From the IMG/VR virus record IMGVR_UViG_3300042319_002356, positions 1 through 64,000 of that record: DNA of 64,000 nt; one strand, given 5' to 3'. Each line of letters begins with the position of its first letter. Position 1 is the stretch's first letter. A program made the position numbers and the translations under genes. This document shows, in pieces, positions 1 through 63,630 of the stretch. The stretch is from a virus. The notes beneath the pieces are model-generated. The model saw only the letters and a program-made list of their open reading frames with translations. It was not told where the DNA came from and did no database searches.

Positions 1-3000
1 AATCGCTCTCACGTATATTCTGTTGCAAGTTCATATACAATCACAATCAGTGGTGATGTAACAGGGTTTAGATTTAATAATACAGGGTCAAGATTAGAAA
101 TACGGGAAATACTAAAATGGGGACCATTACGTGGACTTAACAACTCAAATGCCACAATGTTTTTTGGTTGTAGTAACTTAGTATTAACTGGAGTTACGGA
201 TACTCCTGATTTGGTAGGTATAACTGCAACCACAAGTATGTTCAGAAGTTGTGGTATCACAACTATAAGTGGTGTCAGTGGTTGGGATACTAGTAGTGTG
301 ACTAATATGTCTTTCATGTTTAATGGTGCGACGACATTTAATGACAATATTGGTTCTTGGAATGTTTCAGGTGTTACAGATATGGCATACATGTTTGGTA
401 GTACCTCCCAATTTAATAACGGAGGTAGCCCCTCCATTAGTGGATGGAATGTTAGTAACGTAACTAACATGGAGTCAATGTTCCAATATGGTAACTTTAA
501 CCAAGATATTGGAGCGTGGGATGTTGGTAATGTCACAAACATGCAACAGATGTTCCGACACCAAAGTAATATAGCTGGAACTGGATTTAACAATGGAGGT
601 AGTCCTTCTATTAGTGGATGGAATGTTAGTAATGTTACTAACATGATTGAGATGTTTAGGGGTTCTAAAATTTTCAATCAACCTATTGGAAATTGGAACG
701 TGTCAAACGTAACAAACATGTTTGGCATGTTCTCTACCCAAGGAACTGCTCAACAACCATTTAATCAAAATATTGGTGCTTGGAATGTTTCTGCTGTGAC
801 GGATATGAGACAAATGTTTAGTTCTGCATTATCTTTCAACAACGGAGGAAGTCCATCAATTAGTGGATGGAATGTTAGTAATGTTACACTTATATCCCTA
901 ATGTTCAATAGCGCTAGGGCGTTTAACCAACCGATTGGAAGTTGGGATATGAGAAACAAGTCGGATTTAACAAGAATGTTAGACGATGCTAGATTATTCA
1001 ATCAAGACGTTGGTTCTTGGAATGTTTCAGGTGTCACTAACATGAGTGGATTATTCCGAGACACACATGCTTTTAACAACGCTAGTAGCCCGTCCATAAG
1101 TGGGTGGAACGTTAGTAATGTTACCAATATGAGTAGTATGTTTGGAAATACTGATGGTATAGCCCAACCATTTAATCAACCAATTGGAAGCTGGAATGTA
1201 TCAAGTGTTCAAAACATGTCTGAAATGTTTAATAGATGTACCTCATTCAACCAAGATTTAAGTTCTTGGAATGTTTCGAGTGTCACAAACATGTTTGCCA
1301 TGTTTTATGTTGCGAGCTCATTTAACCAAAACATCTCAAGCTGGAATACGAGTGGTGTTACAAATATGTCTCTTATGTTTGGGTTTGCCAGTTCATTTAA
1401 CCAAAATATTGGTTCTTGGAATACTGGTAACGTAACCTTGATGAATAGTATGTTCCAATCCGCAACCGCATTTAATCAAGATATATCAAATTGGAATACT
1501 GCAAAGGTTACAAACATGGGTAACATGTTTAGTAATGCGGTTGCGTTTAATGGGTATGTCGGGACAAATGGTGATAAGTGGAATGTCTCAGGTGTTACGG
1601 ATATGAGAGGAATGTTCTCAGGAGCTTCAGCCTTCAACAATAGTGGTACTGCGGGTACAAGTACATTTCCTTTAACAGGTTGGAACGTATCAAACGTCAC
1701 AGGTTTAGGAATGGTTTCGATGTTCCAAAATGCGTCTTCATTTAACCAAGACGTATCGAATTGGGATACTAGAAAGATAACAAGTTTAGCTAACATGTTT
1801 AATGGTGCAACATTGTTTAATCAATCAGTTGCAACAAATGGTAATATTTGGAATGTCTCAGGCGTTACCGACATGATAGGTACATTTAGTGGTGCGACTG
1901 GGTATACCAACTTAGGACAACCATTAAGTGGTTGGAGTACAAGTAATGTTACCGACATGTCATTTATGTTCGGTAATTCTGCCTTTAACAAATATATTGG
2001 TAATTGGAATACGTCAAATGTAACAACAATGAGGTCAATGTTTTGGTCTGCAACAACATTTAATAATGAAAGTTTACCATTAAGCGGTTGGAACACGACA
2101 AAAGTGACCACCATGAGGTCAATGTTCAATACCGCACAACAATTTAATCAGTATGTTGGTACGAATGGAACAAATTGGGTAACATCGGCAGTTACTGATA
2201 TGCAATTTATGTTTGCAAGTGCGACTAACTTTAATAATGGTGAGGCCGCAGGTCTAAGTAATTTACCACTTACAGGTTGGAATACAAGTAATGTTACTTT
2301 GATGAACAATATGTTTATTGTTGCCCAATCATTTAACCAAAACATCTCAACTTGGGATACTGCTAAAGTGACTAACATGGCCTCCATGTTTAATAATGCA
2401 TTTTTGTTTAACCAAAACGTTGGTAATTGGAACGTATCGGGCGTAACAAATATGCAAGTGATGTTTAATTTTGCAAACTCATTTAATAACGCAGGTAGTC
2501 CTTCCATTAGTGGGTGGAACACTAGTAATGTTACAACCATGTTCCAAATGTTTGCGGCAACACCCTTCAATCAACCACTTACTAATTGGGACACATTAAA
2601 GTTAACTGGTGCAAGTGCGGTCAATCAGATGTTCTATTCTGCAACATCATTCAACCAAAATTTGACAACTACTGGGAATTTTTGGAATATGTCGGGAGCG
2701 ACAAGTCTTAATAGTATGTTTGGTTTGGCCACCTCGTTTAACGGGGATGTTTCTGGGTGGGACACTAGAAAAGTAACCGATTTTATTTCCACGTTTTTTA
2801 GTGCTACGTCATTTAACCAAAATTTAAGTTCATGGGTAATTACAGGAGGTACAAATGGTAGTTTAAATCAATTTTTAAGTTATTCAAATCTATCTCAGAC
2901 AAATTATGATAATACGTTAATTGGATGGTCTGGACAAAACCCTACTAGTAAAACTATAGGTGTTATTGGATTAGTATATTCACCATCACCTTGTCCTGGA

Positions 3001-6000
3001 GGTGATGCAAGAACTTATCTAGACGTACCTAGAGGTTGGACATTTGTCGGTGACATTGCTGGTTGTTGTGGAACATGTACTCCGACACCAACTCCTACAA
3101 TAACTATTACTCCGAGTATTACTCCAACAATTACAGTTACCCCGAGTATTACTCCTACAGTTACCCCAACAATTACAGTTACCCCAACAATTACAGTTAC
3201 CCCGAGTATTACACCTACCATTACACTGACAATTACCCCTTCGGTTACCGTATCACCATCTTCACCAGTCACTGAATGCCGATGTATAACATTTGTTAAT
3301 AATTCTGCGGGACCTGGTTTTACCCCATATACTTATTATGATTGTAGTGGTAATTTAATTGGTGCGGCAGCAACCCCTGGAGAAATATTTAGTGTGTGTG
3401 GTAGTAATCCTGTAGTTAGTTCAGTTGAATTATTATACTCAATAGGACAACCATGTTTTGGAGGAGAATGTGTTCCGGGTGATGGATGTCTTTGTACTAC
3501 AATCATAATATCTGAGGTTGATTTAAATAACTCAGATACTGATGCGGTTTATGTGTCGTATTTTAACTGTCACGATGGATTAGTTGAATCTTCAGCAATT
3601 ACTGTTGCTGGTGAATATTATATATGTAACAATGCAGTATCAACATTTAATTTATATGGTATTGGTTTACTACTTGATTACACTAATGAAGGAATACCTT
3701 ATAATAATAAAGAAAATCCTAATTTCTTCTATTCTGAATATAGTATTAGTGTTAGTTCTTGTTTACTTGATGAAGACTGTGACCCTTGTTTTAATGAGTT
3801 GTCAATTGATTTTGAATATGTTTGTCAAGAATTATTTCCCACACCAACTCCTTCACCTTCGGCTTCTCCAATAATTGAGGCAAATTGTACCGTATTTTTT
3901 AATGAGGGTACTGATGTTTACACCTATGATTTATTAACAAATACCTCAACATTGTTAACAGTACCTGGTGCTGGTCCATCATACATAGGGGATATTGCAA
4001 ATACCACTACAAAATTGTGGTTAATGAATAGTAATAGTGTTATGGAATGGGATATTACTTTATCTCCATTTAGTGCGACATATAATAGAACTATTACATT
4101 CCCTAATTTTTATGGACCAGGATTATTTGCTATTAACAATACTACTTTATTGGCCGTTGATTCAACCACAACCCCAAATACAGTTGTTACTTTAGATATT
4201 ACCACTACTACCGCAGTACAAACCGCACTATTTACTATGTTACCTGGCAGGAGTGTTGCTGGAGACATCTTAAAAACAAATAATAATAAGATATTAATTA
4301 CTAATTATGGTGTCGGCTCAAATGCTTACATCACCCAATATGATATATCAGGCAGTGTTGAATTTGATAAAAATATAACATCTAGCTCACAGTCCCCTTA
4401 TGGTATGTTTGTGAAGAATGGGCAGATTTATATAATGGATTTTTTTGGTGGTGTATTTCTTATTCAGACATCTTCCCCATATAATTTAACATTAGTTGCG
4501 TCATCAGGACATTACCCTTATGGTGCGTCACAAGACCCTGGATGTGCAAATATTAGTTTTCAGCCGAATGTAACCCCAACACCTACACCCACACCTTCCA
4601 TTACTCCAACTAATACATTACCACCTAATTTAGCGGTTAGTTCTTACTTCTATTGTGATTTAATTACACCTACTCCTACTGTTACTATTAGTCAAACACC
4701 ATTCCAAACCCAAACCCCAACTTTAACACCTGGGTTAAGTCCAAGTGTCACACCTACAAATACTTTAACTCCATTCTTTACTCAGACACCTTCCGTCACT
4801 CCTGACTGTATCAATATTAGTTTTGAATATGTTTGTGAGTTCTTAACACCAACACCTACCCCAACTGTTACCATTACTCCGTTCTTAACTCCTTCAGTTA
4901 CTCCGACAAATACTGTACCCCCAAACATTAATGGTAGTTTCTATTTTTATTGTGATTTAATTACACCTACCCCTACTGTTAGTGTGACTCAAACTCCACT
5001 CCAAACACAGACATCTACCCCCACACCAGGATTGAGTCCATCTGTTACACCAACTAATACTTTAACTCCTTTTTTTACACAGACCCCGAGTCAAACTCCA
5101 AATTGTATTACAATTAGTTTTGAATATGTTTGTGAAAATTTAACGCCTACACCTACCCCGACTGTAACATTAACTCCATTTATTACTCAATCAGTTACTC
5201 CTACGAATACCTTACCACCAAACTTGGGAGTGTCAAGTTATTTCTATTGTAATTTGGCAACCCCAACAGTGACTCCATCACTATCAATTTCAGTTACCCC
5301 AACAATAACACCATCTGTAACTGCGAATGCTTGTTTCTGTTATGATGTAATTGTTACACAACACGATATTGATAGCGCAAGTGGTAACACAAATCCTGTT
5401 GCAAATGGGAGAGTTACGGTTATCTATTATGATTGTGATGAAATTCCAAGACCATTTTCAGTAACTTCTGCTGGTATATACACAATTTGTAATAAAGCAT
5501 CAGAAACATTTGACAACTTAGGTATTGAAGTATTCATTACCTACACACAAAATAATGAGGGTTATAATAATTTAGATGACCCACAATTATTTACTAGCCA
5601 GTACATTACGGAGTATTCATCTTGTACTCAAGATGGTGATTGTGTCCCAATTACCCAAACTCCGACACCTACAGCAACTCTGACACCAGGTTTAAGTTTG
5701 ACCCCAACGGTAACCCCAACCCTAACCCCGTTTTTTACCCCAAGTCCATCACCTGATTGTTCCGGAGTTGCTATATCATTTGAGTATGTTTGTGAGTTCT
5801 TAACCCCGACTCCAACCCCCACTCAGACATTAACCCCGTTCTTAACTCCTTCGGTTACTCCGACACAAAGTATTCCTGTTAATTTAGGTGTTAGCTCTTA
5901 TTTCTATTGTGATTTAGTAAGTCCAACTCCTACGGTTAGTGTGACTGAAACTCCATTCCAAACACAAACTCCAACCCTAACACCTGGTTTAAGTCCAAGT

Positions 6001-8931
6001 GTCACACCTACGAACACATTAACACCATTCTTTACCCAAACACCAAGCCAGACCTCTGATTGTATTAATATTAGTTTTGAGTATGTTTGTGAGTTTTTAA
6101 CTCCAACCCCCACTCCAACTCAGACATTAACCCCGTTCTTAACTCCTTCGGTTACTCCGACACAAAGTTTACCTGTAAATTTAGGTGTTAGCTCTTATTT
6201 CTATTGTGATTTAGTTACATTGACCCCAACAGTCAGTGTGACTGAAACACCTTTTCAAACTCCAACACCAACTCTTACACCAGGATTAAGTCCGAGTGTT
6301 ACTCCGACAAATACTTTAACACCTTTCTTCACACAGACCCCAAGCCAGACCCCTGATTGTATTAACATTAGTTTTGAATATGTTTGTGAGTTCTTAACAC
6401 CAACACCTACGACAACTGTAACATTAACTCCATTCCTGACACCATCGGTAACTCCCACAAATACATTACCACCAAACTTGGCGGTTAGTGTTTATATGTA
6501 TTGTGAGTTAGTTACCCCAACTCAAACTCCGACTCAAACTGTTACACCATCTATTACCCCATCAATTACCCCAACCATTAGTGTTACACCAACAATTCCT
6601 GATGATTGTATTGTTATTGATTTTGAGTTTATTTGTGAGTTTTTAACTCCAACACCTACCCCTACACAGACACTAACTCCGTTCTTAACGCCATCTATTA
6701 CTCCGACAAATACATTACCGCCTAATTTGGCGGTTAGTTCTTACTTCTATTGTGATTTGGTAAGTCCTACACCTACTGTTAGTGTAACTGAAACGCCTTT
6801 CCAAACTCCGACACCAACTCTTACACCTGGTTTAAGTCCAAGTGTTACTCCGACAAATACTTTAACTCCATTCTTTACCCAAACACCAAGCCAGACCCCT
6901 GATTGTATTAATATTAGTTTTGAATATGTTTGTAGTGATTTGACCCCAACCCCAACTGCAACTGTAACGGTAACTCCGTTCTTGACCCCATCTCCAACCC
7001 CTACCGTTACAGTTGCTCCTTTCTTAGCGGTTAGTTCTTATTTTTATTGTGTTAACGTAACACTAACCCCAACAGTAACACCATTCTTAACACAGACACC
7101 GACATTAACACCATTTGCGACTCCTTCAGTTACTCCTAACTGTATTGTTATTAATTTTGAATACGTTTGTAGTAATTTAACTCCTACTCCGACTCCAACT
7201 CAGACCTTAACTCCGTTCTTAACACCATCTATTACTCCGACAAATACCTTACCACCAAACTTGGGAGTGTCAAGTTATTTCTATTGTATTAATGTTACAT
7301 TAACCCCAACATTGACACCATTCTTAACTCCAACTCCAACATTAACACCATTTGCAACACCATCAGTTACACCTGATTGTATTAACATTGTCTTTGAGTA
7401 TGTTTGTGATAATTTAACTCCAACTCCAACACCAACTCAAACTTTAACACCGTTCTTAACACAAACCCCCACACCTACAACGACATTGGCTCCTAATTTA
7501 GGTGTTAGTTCTTACTTCTATTGTGATTTGGTTACTCCTACGGTAACCCCTACACCAACTCAAACTTTACCTGACATTTATTGGTTTAGTGGATGTTGTG
7601 AAATTAATAACATTACGTTTGGTTTATATAACTTACCAGTATCTGTAATTGTTGGTGAAGTTTACTACGTTGAAATTGAGGGAGTATTCTCGGGATGCTC
7701 AACAGTAATTACAACAGGAACCGGAGGAATTTATGGAAATTCAATATTGGTAAATTATACTAATTGTGTTGAATGTATTACTAACAATCCTTGTATCCCT
7801 ATTCCAAGTGTAACACCAACCCCAACGGTGACTCAAACTCCAAATTGTATTACAATTAGTTTTGAATATGTTTGTGAAAATTTAACACCTACGCCTACCC
7901 CTACTCAGACATTAACTCCATTCTTAACTCAGACTCCTACACCTACAACAACATTGGCTCCTAATTTAGGAGTTAGTTCTTATTTCTATTGTGATTTAGT
8001 TACTCCGACTCCAACTTTAACACCATTCTTTACATTAACTCCAACACCAACTCCGACAGTTACACTGACTTCATTCTTAACTCCAACACCAACTCTGACA
8101 CAGTTCTTTACCCCTACACCAACAATAACACCATCAGTTACACCTGATTGTATTACAATAAACTTTGAGTATGTTTGTAGTAATTTAACACCAACTCCAA
8201 CACCAACTCAAACATTAACACCATTTTTAACACCATCAATAACACCAACGGAGACACTACCGCCATATTTGAACGTATCTGTTTATTTATATTGTGAGTT
8301 AGTTACCCCAACACCAACACCTAATATTATGACACCAACACCAACACAAACGGCTACGGTGACCCCAACGTTGACTCCTGGACTAACAGGATGTGGGGTT
8401 CACCAGTATTGTGTCCATTTAGGTAATCCTGATTACGACGGAACATATGTAAACTCGGGATACTATAACGGACATTCTTATTATCTAAACTCAGGAACAA
8501 ATAGTGTAATTTATTACAATAACACTACTTGGTGTGTATCGGATACACTTGGAGGAACTTGTATCCTCTATGGTTCAGTTCCGCCGACATCACCTTGTCC
8601 AAGTTTCTCAAACACTGTATTCAGTGTAGGAGCTTGTCCAACACCTACGCCGACCCCAACTCCATCGGTGACACCTACGTTAACCCCGACTGTGTCACCT
8701 ACTGCGACGTTGACCCCAACTCCGGCAGTTACGACATCTCCAACTACTACTCCGACAGTTACCCCAACAGGGACTAATGCTTGTATTGGTGTTCAAGCAT
8801 ATTCAATTGTTGAAGATGTTCCAAATCCGTCTCCGACTCCTACGGTTACTCCAACGTCAACGGTTGGTAAAGTCTCCTTTAATGGTGAAGGTGTTTTTGT
8901 GGTGTTAAACGATACTTTTGTATGTAATTAA
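1..8931 (+). CDS. Giant surface/virion protein (5'-truncated): BspA/DUF285 repeat region followed by Thr-Pro-rich and Cys-containing repeats
   Basis: Frame 1 is open from base 1 ([18 protein letters not shown]...), so the ATG at 157 is probably internal. Dozens of 'FNQxIxxWxVSxVTNMxxMF' DUF285-type repeats run to ~2990, followed by TPTP tracts and Cys modules. Confidence 0.85.
157..2990 (+). repeat. BspA/DUF285 leucine-rich-like coding repeat array
   Basis: Recurrent WNVSxVTNM / FNQ motifs, with periodic longer variants [12 protein letters not shown]. Confidence 0.85.
3787..8300 (+). repeat. Alternating CxxIxFEYVC / NLxVSSYFYC modules separated by Thr-Pro linkers
   Basis: 12 copies of each module counted by eye in the translation, strictly alternating. 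Confidence 0.85.
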
Positions 8932-54710: not shown

Positions 54711-54911
54711 ATGGGATTTAACAAACGATTTCTTTCTGAACAAAAAATTAAAGATTTTGCGAAAACACATAATTTCACTGAGTTTGAAAAGATGATGTCC
54801 AATTCTGATTTTTATACGTATTTAGATGATTATTCCGCTCAGGTTGGGACGGAATTTTTTATTTCAGACAAAGAAACAAGAACTAACATATATAACAACT
54901 TATTAGTATGA
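54711..54911 (+). CDS. Small hypothetical protein
   Basis: MGFNKRF; ATG 3 nt after TATATTTG. Confidence 0.55.
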   Translation: MGFNKRFLSEQKIKDFAKTHNFTEFEKMMSNSDFYTYLDDYSAQVGTEFFISDKETRTNIYNNLLV

Positions 54912-56113
54912 TTTTTAAATTAGAGTATGTTTGGTTAGATGGGTACACACCGGAACCAAATCTTAGAAGTAAAGTTAAAGTAGTTAACCTTGACGAAGGT
55001 GAAAACTATAATTTCCCAATGTGGGGGTTTGACGGAAGTTCAACAAAACAGGCGGAAGGTTATCTATCCGATTGTTTTTTAAGACCTGTTAGATATTACC
55101 AACACTCAATTATTAAGGAGACTATCCCAACAATTTATGTATTTTGTGATGTCTTAGATAAAGATGGTAATCCGCACCCATCAAACGACAGAGATAAGTT
55201 ACAGAATACTGGTACTGATTTATGGGTAGGGTTTGAACAAGAATATTTTATTCGTTCAAAACACAAAGGGTCAATCATTGGAATGGAAAGAGGTGAAATT
55301 GAAGTCCAAGGTAGATATTATTGTGGCGTTGGAGGACAAATTCACGGAAGAGATATATCTGAGAAACATTTAGAATATTGTTTATCATTGGGAATCAATG
55401 TTGAGGGTACCAATGCGGAAGTTGCAATTGGACAATGGGAATATCAAATCTTTGCGAAAAATACCCTACAAGCTTCTGATGACTTATGGATTAGTAGATA
55501 TATTCTTCATAAAATTGCTGAAAAAGAAGGAATGTCAATTGAGTTACACCCAAAACCATTAATATTCGGTGAGTGGAACGGTTCAGGATTACATACTAAC
55601 TTTTCAAACAAAAGAATGAGAGAGATTGGAGGGGAACAATACTTTAACTGTATTTTCAACTCATTTGAATCATCAACTAAGAAACACATTGAAAATTATG
55701 GCTCAGATAATCATTTAAGATTAACTGGTAAATACGAGACTCAAAGTATTGATAAGTTTAGTTGGGGTATAAGTGATAGAGGAGCGTCAATAAGAATTCC
55801 AAAATCAACCGCAGAAGAATGGAAAGGATATTTGGAGGATAGAAGGCCATCATCAAATGCGAATCCATATAAAGTATTACAAGTTATTATGGAAAGTTTG
55901 AAGGCTGCGGAAGCTATTGATAAAATAAAAACAAAAATGTCAATTAATGTTGATGTTTATGCAACGGCTGAAAAGTTTAAAATGTTGACACCTGACGAAT
56001 TATTAAATGAATATAAATCTGAAGAAGATGGTTATGATAAAATGAAGTGGACGAAAGGTGATGGGAATAATATGGAAACTGAAGAAATTAAATTTGATAT
56101 AAATTCAAAATGA
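54908..56113 (+). CDS. glnII: Glutamine synthetase type II
   Basis: KLEYVWLDG..LRSK, WGFDGSSTKQAEG, GFEQEY, YYCGVG, NAEVA.GQWEYQ, WNGSGLHTNFS, RLTGKYET, RGASIRIP, YLEDRRPSSN. Confidence 0.9.
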   Translation: MIFKLEYVWLDGYTPEPNLRSKVKVVNLDEGENYNFPMWGFDGSSTKQAEGYLSDCFLRPVRYYQHSIIKETIPTIYVFCDVLDKDGNPHPSNDRDKLQNTGTDLWVGFEQEYFIRSKHKGSIIGMERGEIEVQGRYYCGVGGQIHGRDISEKHLEYCLSLGINVEGTNAEVAIGQWEYQIFAKNTLQASDDLWISRYILHKIAEKEGMSIELHPKPLIFGEWNGSGLHTNFSNKRMREIGGEQYFNCIFNSFESSTKKHIENYGSDNHLRLTGKYETQSIDKFSWGISDRGASIRIPKSTAEEWKGYLEDRRPSSNANPYKVLQVIMESLKAAEAIDKIKTKMSINVDVYATAEKFKMLTPDELLNEYKSEEDGYDKMKWTKGDGNNMETEEIKFDINSK

Positions 56114-57622: not shown

Positions 57623-59491
57623 ATGGGAAAAATAATTGGTATTGATTTGGGAACAACGAATTCGTGTGTTGCCGTAATGGAAGGTTCAGAACCTGTCGTA
57701 ATTACAAACAGTGAAGGTAAAAGAACGACTCCTTCAATCATTGGATTTGCCAGTGATGGTGATAGAAAGATTGGTGACCCTGCAAAACGTCAGGCGGTTA
57801 CTAATCCTGAAAAAACAATTCACTCAATTAAAAGATTTATGGGAACTAGTTACACTGAAAGTAAAGGTGAAGTAAAACGTGTTCCTTATAAAGTTGTTAA
57901 GGGTACTGGTGATACTCCTCGTGTTCAGATTGATGACCGTAAGTTTTCACCACAAGAAATTTCAGCAATGGTTCTTCAGAAGATGAAACAAACTGCTGAG
58001 GATTATTTGGGTACTGAAGTTACTGAAGCGGTCATCACAGTACCAGCATACTTCAACGACGCTCAACGTCAGGCTACAAAAGAAGCTGGTGAGATTGCAG
58101 GTCTTACAGTTAAACGTATTATTAACGAACCAACTGCGGCCGCATTAGCTTACGGACTTGATAAGAAAGGTTCGGATATGAAAGTTGTTGTATTTGACTG
58201 TGGTGGTGGAACTCACGACGTATCAATCTTGGAACTTGGAGATGGTGTGTTTGAAGTATTAGCGACTGATGGTGACACACATTTGGGTGGTGATGACTTT
58301 GATAATGCAATCATTGACTGGTTGGTTAAAGAATTCCAAGATGAGAATGGATTGGATTTGTCAAAAGACCCAATGGCGTTACAACGTCTTCGTGAAGGGG
58401 CTGAAAAGGCTAAGATTGAATTGTCCTCAACTTCTTCAACTGAAATCAACCTACCATACATTATGCCGGTTGATGGTGTTCCAAAACACTTGGTGAGAAC
58501 TTTATCTAAAGCAAAATTTGAACAACTTGTTGATAAATTGGTCCAAAGAACAATTGAACCATGTAAGAAGGCTATGGAGAACGCAAACCTTACAGTTGGT
58601 GAAATTGATGAAATTATTTTGGTTGGAGGTTCAACTCGTATTCCGGCAATCCAAGAAGCGGTTAAGAAATTCTTTGGTAAGGAACCATCAAAGGGTGTTA
58701 ATCCTGATGAAGTAGTTGCTCTTGGTGCGGCAATTCAAGGTGGAGTATTGGCCGGTGATGTGAAAGATGTATTGTTGTTGGACGTAACTCCACTTTCATT
58801 AGGTATTGAAACAATGGGAGGAGTATTTACAAAGTTGATTGAAGCTAACACGACAATCCCAACCAAGAAATCACAGATATTCTCAACCGCAGTTGATAAC
58901 CAACCATCAGTTGAAATCCACGTATTACAAGGTGAAAGAGCGATGGCTAAAGATAACAGAACCATTGGACGTTTCCACTTGGATGGATTACCACCGGCAA
59001 TGAGAGGAGTTCCACAAATTGAAGTTGTTTTTGACATTGATGCTAACGGTATTATTAATGTGTCAGCAATTGACAAAGGAACTGACAAACAACAAAATAT
59101 TCGTATTGAAGCGTCATCAGGACTTTCAAAAGAAGAAATTGAAAGAATGAAACAAGAAGCTGAAATGAATGCTGAGGCGGACAAGAAAGTTAAAGAAGAT
59201 GCTGAAACAATTAATCAAGCTGACTCAATGATTTTCCAAATTGAAAAATCTTTGAAGGATATTGAAGATAAATTGACGGACGAACAAAAATCAGAAATTA
59301 ATTCTTCATTACAAGAGTTGAAAGATGCTCATTCTACAAAGGATGTTGATAAGATTAAAACCTCAATGGATAAAGTTAACACAACGTTCCAAAGTATCTC
59401 CTCTGACCTATACTCCCAAGGTTCAGGAGAAACAAATGAACAAACAGACCGAGAGGTTAATGATGTTGACTTTGAAGAAGTTAAAGGTTAA
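57623..59491 (+). CDS. dnaK: DnaK (Hsp70)
   Basis: [41 protein letters not shown]. Confidence 0.97.
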
Positions 59492-60153: not shown

Positions 60154-60897
60154 ATGGAGACAAAAATATGTAAAACTAAACGAGTCAATTTTACAGCGTG
60201 TGGAATTGAAAAAACGGTTAATGAATTTTATAAGGGTAGTTCATTATGTAAGACGTGTTCAAAAAAACTTAATGATTTAAGAGGTAAAGATTACTTCAGG
60301 AAAAAATCAAAAGAAAATTGGGAAAAGAATAAAGAATATTACCGACAAAAATCAAAAGAGTATAGGGAAAAAAATAAAGAGTATTTTCAAAAATATAGAG
60401 ATGATAATAAAGAATACATTAGGGATAGATATAAAGAATATTACTCTGAAAATAATGAAAAAGTTGGTGAAAAAAATAAAAAATGGAGGGAAGAAAATAT
60501 TGAAAAACACAAAGAATATAATAGAAAATCTGCTCAGAAAAGTAGAAAGGAAAATCCTGAAAAACACCGATGGAGATATCTATTAAAGGAAACTTTGAAA
60601 AAAATAAAAAAAGATAAAGATGATAAAACAATAGTTTTATTAGGATATTCCCCCGAAGAACTTAAAAAATACTTAGAAACTTTATCTTCGGATTGGGTTA
60701 AGTATGAAATTGACCATAAAATACCAATAACGTGGTTTAAAGAAGATACACCAGCATCTGTGGTTAATGATTTTAGAAATTTACAGTTATTAACTAAAAG
60801 TGAAAATAATAAAAAAAGAAATTTTTGGATGAGTGATGTTGATGATGTATATTTGAATGAAATTAAAAACTATATTAAAGAAAAACATATAATATAA
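60154..60897 (+). CDS. HNH-type homing endonuclease-like protein
   Basis: N-terminal Cys cluster, YRE.NKE charged repeats, C-terminal EIDHKIP...NLQLLTKSENNKK. Confidence 0.7.
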   Translation: METKICKTKRVNFTACGIEKTVNEFYKGSSLCKTCSKKLNDLRGKDYFRKKSKENWEKNKEYYRQKSKEYREKNKEYFQKYRDDNKEYIRDRYKEYYSENNEKVGEKNKKWREENIEKHKEYNRKSAQKSRKENPEKHRWRYLLKETLKKIKKDKDDKTIVLLGYSPEELKKYLETLSSDWVKYEIDHKIPITWFKEDTPASVVNDFRNLQLLTKSENNKKRNFWMSDVDDVYLNEIKNYIKEKHII

Positions 60898-61469
60898 TGC
60901 GCATTATACTACTTGACCACGATGGAGTTATCTGTTTATCAGGTAATTGGGGGTCACGATTTAAGAAACAACAAAAGGAGAGAAAGAAGTTGAGTCAGGA
61001 CGTTATGTCAATGCCAGTTGATGCTCGTTTTGATAACTTTGACAAGAAGGCAATCAAGGTACTGAACAAAATCTTGGAACAGACCGGAGCTGAAATTGTT
61101 GTTTCATCTGATTGGAAAAATTGGTGTACAGTTGAAGAAATGGGTGATTACTACGAAAGACAGGGTATCATCAAACGACCAATTGATTTCACAGGAAACA
61201 ACATTGATGGTGAGAAAGTTACCTGGCACCGAAATTGGGATTTGGAAGGAACAAGAAGTATTCAGATTCAAGATTGGTTAAAGGAACATCCTGAAGTTAC
61301 ACATTGGGTTGCTATTGATGACTTGAATATGGCAAAGACTGGACTTCACTACTCAATGGAATTTGAACACGAATGGGCGTTAGATAACTTTGTACATACG
61401 CCAATGAATAATGAGGGTATCAAGCAAGTTGGAGTTAAAGAAAAAGTGTTAAAATTTTTGGTAGGTTAA
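60897..61469 (+). CDS. HAD phosphatase (Swiss-Army-knife RNA-repair-like HAD family)
   Basis: LDHDGV, IVVSSDW, R...I..WL, WVAIDD. Confidence 0.8.
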   Translation: MRIILLDHDGVICLSGNWGSRFKKQQKERKKLSQDVMSMPVDARFDNFDKKAIKVLNKILEQTGAEIVVSSDWKNWCTVEEMGDYYERQGIIKRPIDFTGNNIDGEKVTWHRNWDLEGTRSIQIQDWLKEHPEVTHWVAIDDLNMAKTGLHYSMEFEHEWALDNFVHTPMNNEGIKQVGVKEKVLKFLVG

Positions 61470-61701: not shown

Positions 61702-61728
61702 AAAATTCGTTGTATATTTGTAAAAGAA

Positions 61729-62124
61729 ATGAAAACACAAAAAATGAGTATTATGAGTAAAAAAGGTAAAAACAAAAATCAAAACGCTGAGTTGATTGAG
61801 CGTCTTAATGAAATCCAATCACAATTGAATGAAGTAAAAGTTGACGCAGGAGTTGAAGAAACTGAATTCACATTCACAAAAGAACAACTTGAAAACTTCT
61901 TAGTTGAGTACACAAACAAAATTAATGATTATATCTTTGATGAAATGTTTCGGTCACTTGATTCTGATGAAATTGTGTCTATTGATGTTGATGGTCGTGA
62001 GATTAACACTTACGTTGATGAAGACAAATTGAGAGATGCGTTTGTCACGGCAACTGAATCTGTTGAAACTGATACTATAATGGAATATGCTGACGAAGCA
62101 ATGTCCGAAGTCGGAGTAGACTAA
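61729..62124 (+). CDS. Acidic hypothetical protein
   Basis: 131-aa ORF after TATATTTG. Confidence 0.6.
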   Translation: MKTQKMSIMSKKGKNKNQNAELIERLNEIQSQLNEVKVDAGVEETEFTFTKEQLENFLVEYTNKINDYIFDEMFRSLDSDEIVSIDVDGREINTYVDEDKLRDAFVTATESVETDTIMEYADEAMSEVGVD

Positions 62125-62686
62125 TTTGTAAAGAAGACCCCACAATACCGTTTATCTGCGGTTGGACAGTGTGAACCTGGCTTGAAGGCTCCAAGGCTAT
62201 GGGGGAGGCTACACAGAACGTGAAATACATATAGCACTACTTAATCGGTGTTAATTGGTTTGGGGAAGTTCAACCAAGTATGATAGGGAACAATGAATTA
62301 GATACCCTCGTTATGGATTAAAAGGGTTAGGGGCTTTAAGTAGTCGTGTCGTAATCCACAAGTCGTAAGAACACTAGACAATCTTACGATATACACTCTT
62401 CTTCCGAGTGAGGTTAACCAAGTAACTATGGTGACAGGGCGAAGATGTCTTGAGGGTAACACTGAGCGCCTTGACCGAGAAGCTTATGACTAATTTGATT
62501 AAGTGAGTAGGGACAGGACGGAGTGTGAGAGTATAGGTCCTCGGTGGACGGTTACTATGGTCCCACTCTCTTGGGGCATATCCGAGGAAATACTACTGAT
62601 GGTAAAATACTACTAACCAAAGGTCGTCTCGTGAATTACCCACGGACAGGGAAGACGACCTTTAACTTTTTAAAAAGAATAAAACA
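62125..62686 (+). ncRNA. Putative large structured non-coding RNA (family unassigned; strand inferred from flanking genes)
   Basis: Only long ORF-free gap in the window; ~45% GC by hand count over 62161-62640; many complementary stems. Confidence 0.6.
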
Positions 62687-62911
62687 ATGGCGGCAAAATC
62701 AAAACATTATTTGGACGTATTGAGTTGGGTTAAATCGGTTATCAAATCAATTGACCATCCGTTACAAGACGCAACTGCAAAAAGACTCATCGGAAATTAT
62801 TTTGAAATGTATGGAGATAAGTTTACACTCAAGGAGAAAATTCAGATTGGGATGGATTTGAGGATGGAACTTGACGCTGTGGTATATAAAAAAACAAAAC
62901 AATCAATATGA
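62687..62911 (+). CDS. Hypothetical protein
   Basis: 74 aa, ATGA-coupled to clpP. Confidence 0.6.
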   Translation: MAAKSKHYLDVLSWVKSVIKSIDHPLQDATAKRLIGNYFEMYGDKFTLKEKIQIGMDLRMELDAVVYKKTKQSI

Positions 62912-63630
62912 ATTACGGAAAAGAATTTAGAAAATTCGCAATGAGTGAGGGAATTTCCTCATTAAGTCTTGACAGCTTTGAAAACTCCTTAACACCTTAT
63001 GTGTTGGAAGAAAGGGAGATGAGAGCAACACAGATTGACATCTTCTCAAGATTAATGAGAGAAAGAATTTTATGGGTATCAGGACCCGTTAACCAAAGAA
63101 TGTCAGACATTGTCCAAGCACAATTGTTATTCTTGGATTCAGTGGAGAAACGAGACATTACATTATATATTAACTCACCTGGTGGTTCAGTTCTATGTGG
63201 ACTCGGAATCGTGGATTTGATGAATTACATTAAGTCAGATGTTGCAACAACCAATATTGGAATGTGTGCATCAATGGGTTCAGTATTATTGTCATCAGGA
63301 ACAAAAGGAAAGCGTTCATCCCTTGTTTATTCAAAGGTGATGACCCACCAGGTGAGTCATGGAACACATGGAAATGTTCAAGACACACGTATTAACCAAT
63401 TGGAAGCTGAAAAATACAATTACATTTTGTTTAAGATGTTGGCTGAAAATTGTGGAAAGTCATTTGATGAAGTATTAGAATTCTCAAGACGAGACAGATG
63501 GTATACATCAGATGAAGCAAAAGAATTTGGATTGATTGATGAAGTAATCAAAACTGAAGGAACCAAATCAATCACGGAAATGTTGGAAGGGTTTGACGAC
63601 TACTACAACAAGGAAGTGATGTCTAAATAA
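62908..63630 (+). CDS. clpP: ATP-dependent Clp protease proteolytic subunit
   Basis: DIFSRLMRERI, AQLLFL, YINSPGGSV, catalytic Ser CASMGS, His MTHQ, RDRW...EAKEFGLIDEV. Confidence 0.95.
   Translation: MNYGKEFRKFAMSEGISSLSLDSFENSLTPYVLEEREMRATQIDIFSRLMRERILWVSGPVNQRMSDIVQAQLLFLDSVEKRDITLYINSPGGSVLCGLGIVDLMNYIKSDVATTNIGMCASMGSVLLSSGTKGKRSSLVYSKVMTHQVSHGTHGNVQDTRINQLEAEKYNYILFKMLAENCGKSFDEVLEFSRRDRWYTSDEAKEFGLIDEVIKTEGTKSITEMLEGFDDYYNKEVMSK

Follow-up and report, generated by a model that had tools for sequence, protein, structure and literature searches.

Comparison of 19 related sequences from uncultured phages, together with searches of RNA family databases and of assembled RNA libraries, leads us to favor, with moderate confidence, the view that positions 62134 to 62670 (plus strand) of the stretch of viral DNA analyzed here (the window; 64,000 nucleotides) form a stand-alone structured noncoding RNA gene of an uncatalogued family, the product of which acts in trans. 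The alignment indicates that this large, knotted phage RNA represents a genuinely new family, which appears to be unlike any catalogued RNA family and has no detectable homology to GOLLD or ROOL. In the mechanism that we propose, the RNA would be transcribed with, or just behind, the gene for a 131-aa protein (p131), and its 3′ end would be set by a terminal hairpin (P13) and U-run in the genome studied here and by RNase P at an abutting tRNA-Phe in a probably older arrangement. The RNA would accumulate as a stable species and work in trans through its three-dimensional architecture, either in an RNA-only assembly or as a scaffold that binds proteins or tRNAs, as has been proposed for GOLLD and ROOL.

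A gene-free element in a jumbo phage genome

The window is the first part of a 90.8-kb IMG/VR virus record (G000) whose completeness was put at 31% by CheckV; its source is therefore a jumbo phage with a genome of roughly 300 kb. The phage Hsp70 is nearest (76%) to the Hsp70 of a Crocinitomicaceae MAG, which makes a host in the Flavobacteriales probable, and the public DNA runs that contain the stretch carry the label lake water. Near ClpP and the tRNA island, the window also encodes a full-length Hsp70/DnaK (57623-59491), a glutamine-synthetase-like protein (54908-56113), and an RNA-repair HAD domain of the "Swiss Army Knife" type (60897-61469); positions 1-8931 are taken up by one ORF of at least 2976 codons that runs past the left window edge. 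Outside the window, the region at 90090-90767 of the record (L199, 8090-8767) carries three tandem strong TTGACA...TAAnTTTG promoter-like sites, 3′ of which sequence that is poor in ORFs and richer in GC continues for at least 400 nt, to the contig end. Rfam has no family for this region, which is not a paralogue of the 62134-62670 RNA and is a second candidate large RNA.

The interval 62125-62686 lies between the p131 ORF (61729-62124) and a 74-aa ORF (62687-62911), which is followed by clpP (62908-63630; ClpP matches PF00574 with an E value of 1e-54); the latter two genes are on the plus strand and lie outside the RNA. The initial annotation, made from the sequence alone, had described this interval as the only long ORF-free gap in 64 kb. 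Once ORFs of at least 60 aa were masked, no free stretch of the window was indeed longer than 62146-62686 (541 nt), and no other had a GC content above 35%. The GC content of ~45%, obtained from a hand count of 214 G+C in the 480 nt of 62161-62640, proved exact (44.6%, versus 32.8% for the window). All six frames of 62125-62686 are closed, with 8 to 16 stops per frame and TAA, TAG, and TGA mixed; an alternative genetic code was rejected for this interval, as each frame contains all three stop codons.

Seven viral contigs were reached through the upstream protein p131, and further viral and metagenome contigs were reached through exact words of the RNA; in addition, 80 ClpP loci were scanned for the RNA by nhmmer. 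The homologues, drawn from independent contigs, comprise 19 distinct sequences of 418 to 539 nt (about 535 nt in the window), all from uncultured phages. As far as searched, the family is narrow, phage-only, and confined to a single clade of freshwater jumbo phages. Among 34 related ClpP-bearing phage records, BLAST and a covariance model of the central domain (R1) recovered only three already-known members; a search with the diverged p131 of G035 returned only G035 and G036, no paralogue of the RNA was found within G000, and two metagenome 19-mer matches (L016 and L019) were dismissed as chance matches within coding DNA. The GenBank phage collection gave no match (blastn, distant mode), and one exact 22-mer of the core was absent from 185,579 GTDB species genomes. 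Model R1 found nothing credible in 151 Flavobacteriales genomes, where its one marginal match (E value of 0.005) was at about chance level. With no credible match in the GTDB and Flavobacteriales searches, a host origin of the RNA was rejected.

Rfam 15 gave no match at the gathering score over the window, and permissive scans of the element (1001 nt and 211 nt) returned only noise at E values up to 10. ARAGORN found no tRNA or tmRNA in the window and no tmRNA in the whole 90.8-kb record. These results agree with the initial annotation, which had recognized no tRNA, tmRNA, RNase P, or intron signature and had proposed a novel RNA, and literature searches found no description of it. Several identities were rejected individually: tmRNA, for which ARAGORN and Rfam were negative and whose pairing of the two ends is not seen, the 5′ end of our RNA pairing locally with 62200-04; RNase P RNA, for which the type A, type B, and archaeal models gave no match even at E values up to 10; and GOLLD or ROOL, whose covariance models gave no match at the gathering score in the window and none at E values up to 10 in the 1001- and 211-nt scans.

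Predicted secondary structure and covariation

Conserved sequence begins abruptly at 62134 in every homologue, and we take the whole noncoding RNA to extend on the plus strand from this first conserved base (AAGACCCC) to the U-run behind the terminal hairpin, at 62670. Scanning the alignment for stacked, consistently complementary column pairs yielded a model of 104 pairs in 19 helices. The predicted fold of the RNA has about 20 helices, among them one pseudoknot supported by covariation and several candidate knots that are conserved. On alignment A4 (19 sequences), the model is 97.9% paired and both-sided (compensatory) changes are present in 31 of the 104 pairs; these figures are inflated because the model was partly derived from the same 19 sequences, which are related and mosaic, and the changes are not independent events. 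When the 3′ partners were shuffled, 13.4 ± 1.9 pairs were compensatory and none of 500 shuffles reached 31; when the partners were slid by 1 to 3 columns, just 1 to 3 compensatory pairs were obtained. The model contains 108 G·U cells versus 13 A·C cells, an excess which shows that the RNA is read from the plus strand. Covariation among homologues, which the initial annotation had named as a check, is thus borne out; the folding energy was no better than that of dinucleotide shuffles on either strand (z = 0.02 for the plus strand and −1.19 for the minus strand), an outcome that the initial annotation had counted against a structured RNA. The energy score says little, partly because pseudoknots are left out of the folding model, and the covariation evidence outweighs it.

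All elements of the model are given on the plus strand. The 5′ domain (62138-62214) consists of P1 (62138-42/62200-04), P2 (62147-50/62159-62), P3 (62176-80/62191-96), and a candidate knot, PKa (62169-73/62210-14); three pairs of P2 and two of P3 covary, and P1 and PKa are invariant. Next to it lies an optional insert, V1 (62220-62293), with hairpins at 62232-37/62248-53 and 62255-60/62272-77. Ten of the 19 homologues lack this insert, L103 and L187 have a different version, and the both-sided change at four pairs of its second hairpin is mostly due to L187 alone. The central domain (62296-62462) contains P4 to P9 and the pseudoknot PKb. P4 (62305-08/62323-26; two compensatory pairs) is crossed by P5 (62314-19/62353-58), and the remaining helices are P6 (62332-35/62342-45; two), P7 (62362-69/62383-90; three), P8 (62394-98/62406-10; one), and P9 (62417-20/62429-32; two). 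PKb (62376-80/62446-50) joins the P7 loop to a distal strand, and one of its pairs switches between A-U (5 sequences) and G-C (14 sequences) with no exceptions and in at least three sequence backgrounds; as a predicted pseudoknot, PKb is well supported by covariation.

A second optional insert, V2 (62463-62522), extends hairpin P10 (62459-62/62523-26). Nine of the 19 homologues have an 8-nt loop in its place, the long form exists in three distinct versions, and the P10 pair 62461/62524 occurs as four pair types. The most conserved block (62523-62600), nearly invariant in all 19 sequences, holds P11 (62538-44/62582-88; one compensatory pair), P12 (62560-65/62572-77; two), and a candidate knot, PKc (62527-31/62566-70). 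In a further candidate knot, PKd, the sequence GGUUAC (62550-55) would pair with the P9 loop GUAACU (62422-27); the two are invariant and complementary and constitute the only conserved 6-bp match with all bases free in the model. PKc is invariant as well, as are P1 and PKa. The terminal hairpin P13 (62619-62670) is built from an outer stem (62619-29/62653-63), an inner stem (62630-33/62641-44), and a conserved bulge of 8 nt, with the U-run (62666-70) behind them; its six compensatory pairs put it ahead of P2 and P7 (three each). Length variation is limited to the two hairpin-extension modules V1 and V2, with a minimal form of about 415 nt, and the covarying helices are separated by many single-stranded junctions that do not vary. 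Two other foldings were rejected: an RNAalifold prediction from four sequences matched the 5′ CCCC to 62330-33 and CCCU to the upstream AGGG, both of which are contradicted by the larger alignment, and a possible 12-bp pairing of 62445-56 with 62568-79 shows no compensatory change and is incompatible with PKb and P12.

The alignment also allowed the helices read by eye in the initial annotation to be revisited; 10 of the 14 pairings fit it. Five of them (accg/cggt, cctgg/ccaagg, ttggtt/aaccaa, tcgtaaga/tcttacga, and aaaggtcgtct/agacgaccttt) covary, cactc/gagtg has changed once on both sides, the pairings tagcac/gtgtta and tggatta/taatcca show conservation or one-sided changes only, and cccca/tgggg and the gtgt/acac knot are invariant. 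About a quarter of the helices were wrong: in place of the proposed aggg/ccct pairing, CCCU pairs, with covariation, with the downstream AGGG at 62323-26, and agggcg/cgcctt, gagt-a-gggac/gtccc-actc, and aggac/gtcct are confined to the window-type optional insert. The idea of one element of ~560 nt holds in that there is a single RNA, although 62220-62293 and 62463-62522 within it are optional, and the GC-rich terminal hairpin is present, although a short form of it is also found in relatives without the RNA. The larger proposal, one large structured noncoding RNA in the ROOL/GOLLD size class, is backed by the covariation among the 19 homologues, by the lack of a match in Rfam 15, and by the phage tRNA island setting described below.

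Genomic setting, expression, and allelic variation

The p131 gene (61729-62124, plus strand) encodes an acidic protein of 131 aa, and its stop codon lies about 10 nt 5′ of the RNA. The protein has no Pfam or PHROG family, and its AlphaFold model (pLDDT of 79) has no PDB fold match at an E value of ≤0.001, the best matches being prefoldin-like coiled coils (E value of about 0.4), and it therefore gives no hint at what the RNA does. Wherever a contig covers the upstream flank, the gene immediately 5′ of the RNA is a p131 homologue, with G037 as the sole exception, and the RNA starts about 10 to 45 nt past the p131 stop codon; the p131 gene is also found without the RNA. Upstream of p131, at 61712-61719, there is a TATATTTG box, which we take to be a Bacteroidetes-type promoter. 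This type of box is conserved upstream of p131, and cotranscription of p131 and the RNA is therefore likely in most genomes. A conserved promoter directly upstream of the RNA is absent in most of the genomes compared. In G037, the gene 5′ of the RNA is lipoprotein-like, there is no p131 or clpP flank, and the RNA is preceded, at a distance of 14 nt, by a perfect TATATTTG box.

The 3′ neighbor of the RNA differs from relative to relative: it is tRNA-Phe(GAA) in L103, L106, L184, and L189, with a 9-nt spacer behind P13; clpP itself in the L110 type; another ORF in L006, L007, and L205; an atypical tRNA in L005; and the 74-aa ORF in G000. Because the gene behind the RNA varies, and because the clpP loci of close relatives lack the RNA, a riboswitch or attenuator in a clpP leader was rejected, and the upstream-of-clpP setting assigned by the initial annotation does not characterize the RNA, which is not bound to clpP. 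The tRNA setting is broader; G000 has 17 tRNA genes, starting at 65.2 kb, and relatives have tRNAs on either side of the RNA. In the tRNA-Phe arrangement, the U-run behind P13 is missing, and RNase P cleavage at the abutting tRNA would release the 3′ end of the RNA; we infer that RNase P probably trims the RNA there.

Two further observations concern the tRNA genes themselves. The site of the normal tRNA-Phe(GAA) is occupied in some relatives by tRNA-Phe-like genes with irregular anticodon loops (L005, 3940-4015; L006, 4442-4517; L111, 3232-3307), which ARAGORN reports as "tRNA-???" with 2- or 4-base anticodons and of which the L005 and L111 copies score ~48 to 51 bits as tRNA in Rfam; they may be decayed tRNAs retained as processing signals. 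A tRNA at 286-371 in both L115 and L116 scores 48 bits with the selenocysteine tRNA model of Rfam (gathering score of 47) and is tRNA-Ser(TGA) according to ARAGORN; it is probably a long-arm Ser tRNA and not tRNA-Sec.

Assembled RNA-library contigs from four studies contain the RNA, which answers, with the proviso of possible DNA carry-over, the call of the initial annotation for metatranscriptome coverage. Six RNA-library runs contain 7 to 11% of the words sampled from a 2.2-kb stretch; in the four of those runs whose words were placed along the sequence, each from a different study, they fall on the RNA, and the contigs span 62092-62609 and leave 62610-62683 uncovered. Per-contig depth in run X20 was about 43 to 132 on the RNA versus 2 to 6.5 on the p65 and ClpP contigs, with a similar contrast in runs X21 and X23, although in such assembled contigs a core common to many strains pools reads relative to diverged flanks. 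Contigs of two library records (1 and 17) bridge p131 and the RNA. Taken together, the contigs are supportive of transcription of the RNA.

Some relatives lack the RNA at the corresponding place. L105, L107, L115, and L121 carry p131, a simple 9-bp hairpin akin to the outer portion of P13, and tRNA-Phe, with the body of the RNA missing. The upstream flank of L106, which has the RNA, is 94% identical to those of L107 and L121, which do not, and the boundaries are clean. As natural empty alleles exist in near-identical backgrounds, the RNA is not essential, and these sequence comparisons mark it as accessory and dispensable. There is also a truncated allele (L004, 3403-3560; also L102 and L183), in which exactly 62142-62534 are missing and the last 150 nt are kept, with AAGACCCC fused straight to GAGGUC...; its 3′ 150 nt (P11, P12, and P13) are well conserved, and either the remnant is still active or the deletion is recent. 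The distribution of single-hairpin alleles is mosaic, and the RNA has either been lost more than once or been exchanged between phages.

The RNA is more conserved than its flanks. The core (62136-62349 in G000) has 97 to 100% identity in places where the upstream gene DNA is ~80% identical, and its near-identity among some phages may reflect recent exchange or recombination alongside purifying selection. At greater distances, the RNA is 74 to 80% identical in G035-G037; in G035 and G036 it is 80% identical while the p131 protein is 31% identical.

Alternative readings and relation to known phage RNAs

The lack of a conserved promoter directly upstream speaks against a stand-alone RNA and for a 3′ UTR. 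The RNA could on that basis be a cis-acting element of the p131-tRNA/clpP unit, either an attenuator or antiterminator with P13 as its platform or a 3′ UTR that controls stability, processing, or read-through. Such an element would account for the constant orientation of the RNA between p131 and an immediately adjoining downstream gene, for the resemblance of P13 and its U-run to an intrinsic terminator and the simple terminator-like hairpin at the same place in empty alleles, and for RNA-library contigs that span p131 and the RNA. We nevertheless regard it as unlikely, since the downstream unit may be tRNA-Phe, the 74-aa ORF, clpP, or another ORF; the RNA of G037 has neither a p131 nor a clpP flank and has a promoter-like box of its own; the U-run is missing in the tRNA-Phe arrangement; the same operon is expressed in relatives without the RNA; and a size of 400 to 540 nt with several knots far exceeds known attenuators. 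It is quite unlikely that the RNA is, in whole or in part, a ribozyme, with the 5′ domain cleaving itself off the p131 mRNA or with catalysis directed at phage tRNAs. The many invariant single-stranded junctions between covarying helices and the abrupt start of conservation at 62134 would suit a ribozyme, as would the strand order of the 5′ domain (P1-X-P3-P3′-P1′-X′, where PKa supplies X), which fits the nested double pseudoknot P1-P2-P3-P3′-P1′-P2′ of minimal HDV-like ribozymes. Against this, there is no match to the self-cleaving families of Rfam, P1 opens with C-G and not with a G·U wobble, P1 and PKa are invariant, and the position of the would-be catalytic C, just 5′ of the second PKa strand, holds a C in 16 sequences but a U in two (L110 and L187) and an A in one (L103). 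Because a C-to-U change of the catalytic cytosine (first position of J4/2) inactivates HDV-like ribozymes (Kienbeck et al. 2024, PMC10879173) and this base is not conserved here, an HDV-like ribozyme in the 5′ domain was rejected.

The allelic variation raises the question of selfish or neutral DNA, an insertion spread by recombination among related phages whose conservation stems from that recent spread. Presence and absence of the RNA despite 94% identical upstream flanks and clean boundaries, the truncated allele (L004 and L183), the mosaic pattern of single-hairpin alleles, and a core that is 97 to 100% identical in phages with ~80% identical flanks all fit this description. However, compensatory changes keep the helices, and the G·U bias points to selection on the plus-strand RNA; the RNA is 74 to 80% identical in G035-G037, where the neighboring protein is 31% identical or replaced; and terminal repeats, a transposase, a homing gene, and a second copy in G000 are all absent, with the insertion site always the same. 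We therefore consider a selfish insertion very unlikely. That the RNA derives from or imitates the platform of 16S rRNA (690 and 790 loops), serving as a decoy for a ribosome-binding factor, is highly improbable. The idea was suggested by 62283-62310, which agree with the 790-loop region of Flavobacterium 16S rRNA at 23 of 26 aligned bases (local alignment z of 2.7 to 4.4, with 1 to 8 of 300 to 400 shuffles reaching the score), a resemblance spotted after the fact. The small-subunit model RF00177 finds nothing in G000, yet matches all 14 control genomes, and the 211-nt scan also gave nothing; the motif lies on the border of V1, differs in L106, L197, and L187, and is missing from L103; and CCCU pairs with the downstream AGGG, unlike helix 24. 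With a weakly significant alignment only, a silent SSU model, and a motif that is not conserved, the mimic was rejected.

A stand-alone RNA acting in trans thus remains our preferred reading, and it can be extended, tentatively, to a founding member of a new class with its own activity, either RNA-only quaternary assembly, by analogy with the GOLLD and ROOL cages, or catalysis or binding on the tRNAs of the phage or on host translation or quality control. In that case, the functional heart of the RNA would be the 62523-62600 block together with the GUAACU/GGUUAC loop pairing. Very few known natural RNAs exceed 400 nt and have intricate, pseudoknotted folds; GOLLD and ROOL were recently shown to make RNA-only nanocages, and their biology awaits explanation. 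A third family beside phage tRNA islands, unrelated to these two, offers an independent handle on the role of such RNAs. The family is tractable, with presence/absence alleles in near-identical backgrounds, a 415-nt minimal form, and two dispensable inserts, and it is suited to structure determination and to population-level fitness comparisons in lake time series. The analysis contributes a helix map with coordinates, two optional modules, alleles that are empty or truncated, the linkage to p131 and tRNA-Phe, the RNA-library evidence, and the rejection of the rRNA-mimic and HDV-like readings.

Among known RNAs, tmRNA is about 400 nt long and has several pseudoknots, and ClpP degrades tmRNA-tagged proteins. 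The RNA described here is similar to tmRNA in size, in its several pseudoknots, in its adjacent tRNA genes, and here also in the adjacent clpP; unlike tmRNA, its ends form no acceptor stem and it has no T arm. Phage T4 encodes rnaC and rnaD (species 1 and 2), stable non-tRNA RNAs of the phage tRNA cluster that are about 120 to 140 nt long, simple, dispensable, and matured from tRNA transcripts by host tRNA-processing enzymes. Likened to them by description only, our RNA is also a dispensable non-tRNA RNA in a phage tRNA region, but it is knotted and three to four times their size, and none of the T4-like records among the GenBank phages matched it. Minimal HDV-like (theta) ribozymes sit next to phage tRNAs, on their 3′ side (PMC10879173); the 5′ 77 nt of our RNA share their nested-double-pseudoknot strand order and the phage tRNA context, whereas the RNA as a whole has no conserved catalytic cytosine and no Rfam match, is seven times larger, and lies 5′ of the tRNA.

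The closest analogues of the RNA, as judged by size, complexity, and genomic niche, appear to be GOLLD and ROOL, which are phage or prophage RNAs often found near tRNA islands, with reported examples of 659 nt for ROOL and often >800 nt for GOLLD (Kretsch et al. 2025, PMC12286853). Our RNA differs from both in that it has no sequence or covariance model similarity to them, is smaller (415 to 540 nt), and is limited to a narrow clade of lake jumbo phages, with no occurrence in the bacterial genomes searched. It resembles them in its length of several hundred nucleotides, in its many helices with pseudoknots, in being encoded by phages beside or within tRNA islands and sometimes directly beside a tRNA, in having no known protein partner, and in being nonessential. 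The 17 tRNAs of G000, the abutting tRNA-Phe of relatives, compensatory change at 31 of 104 pairs, and PKb are what would be expected of a GOLLD/ROOL-like large phage RNA encoded next to tRNAs.
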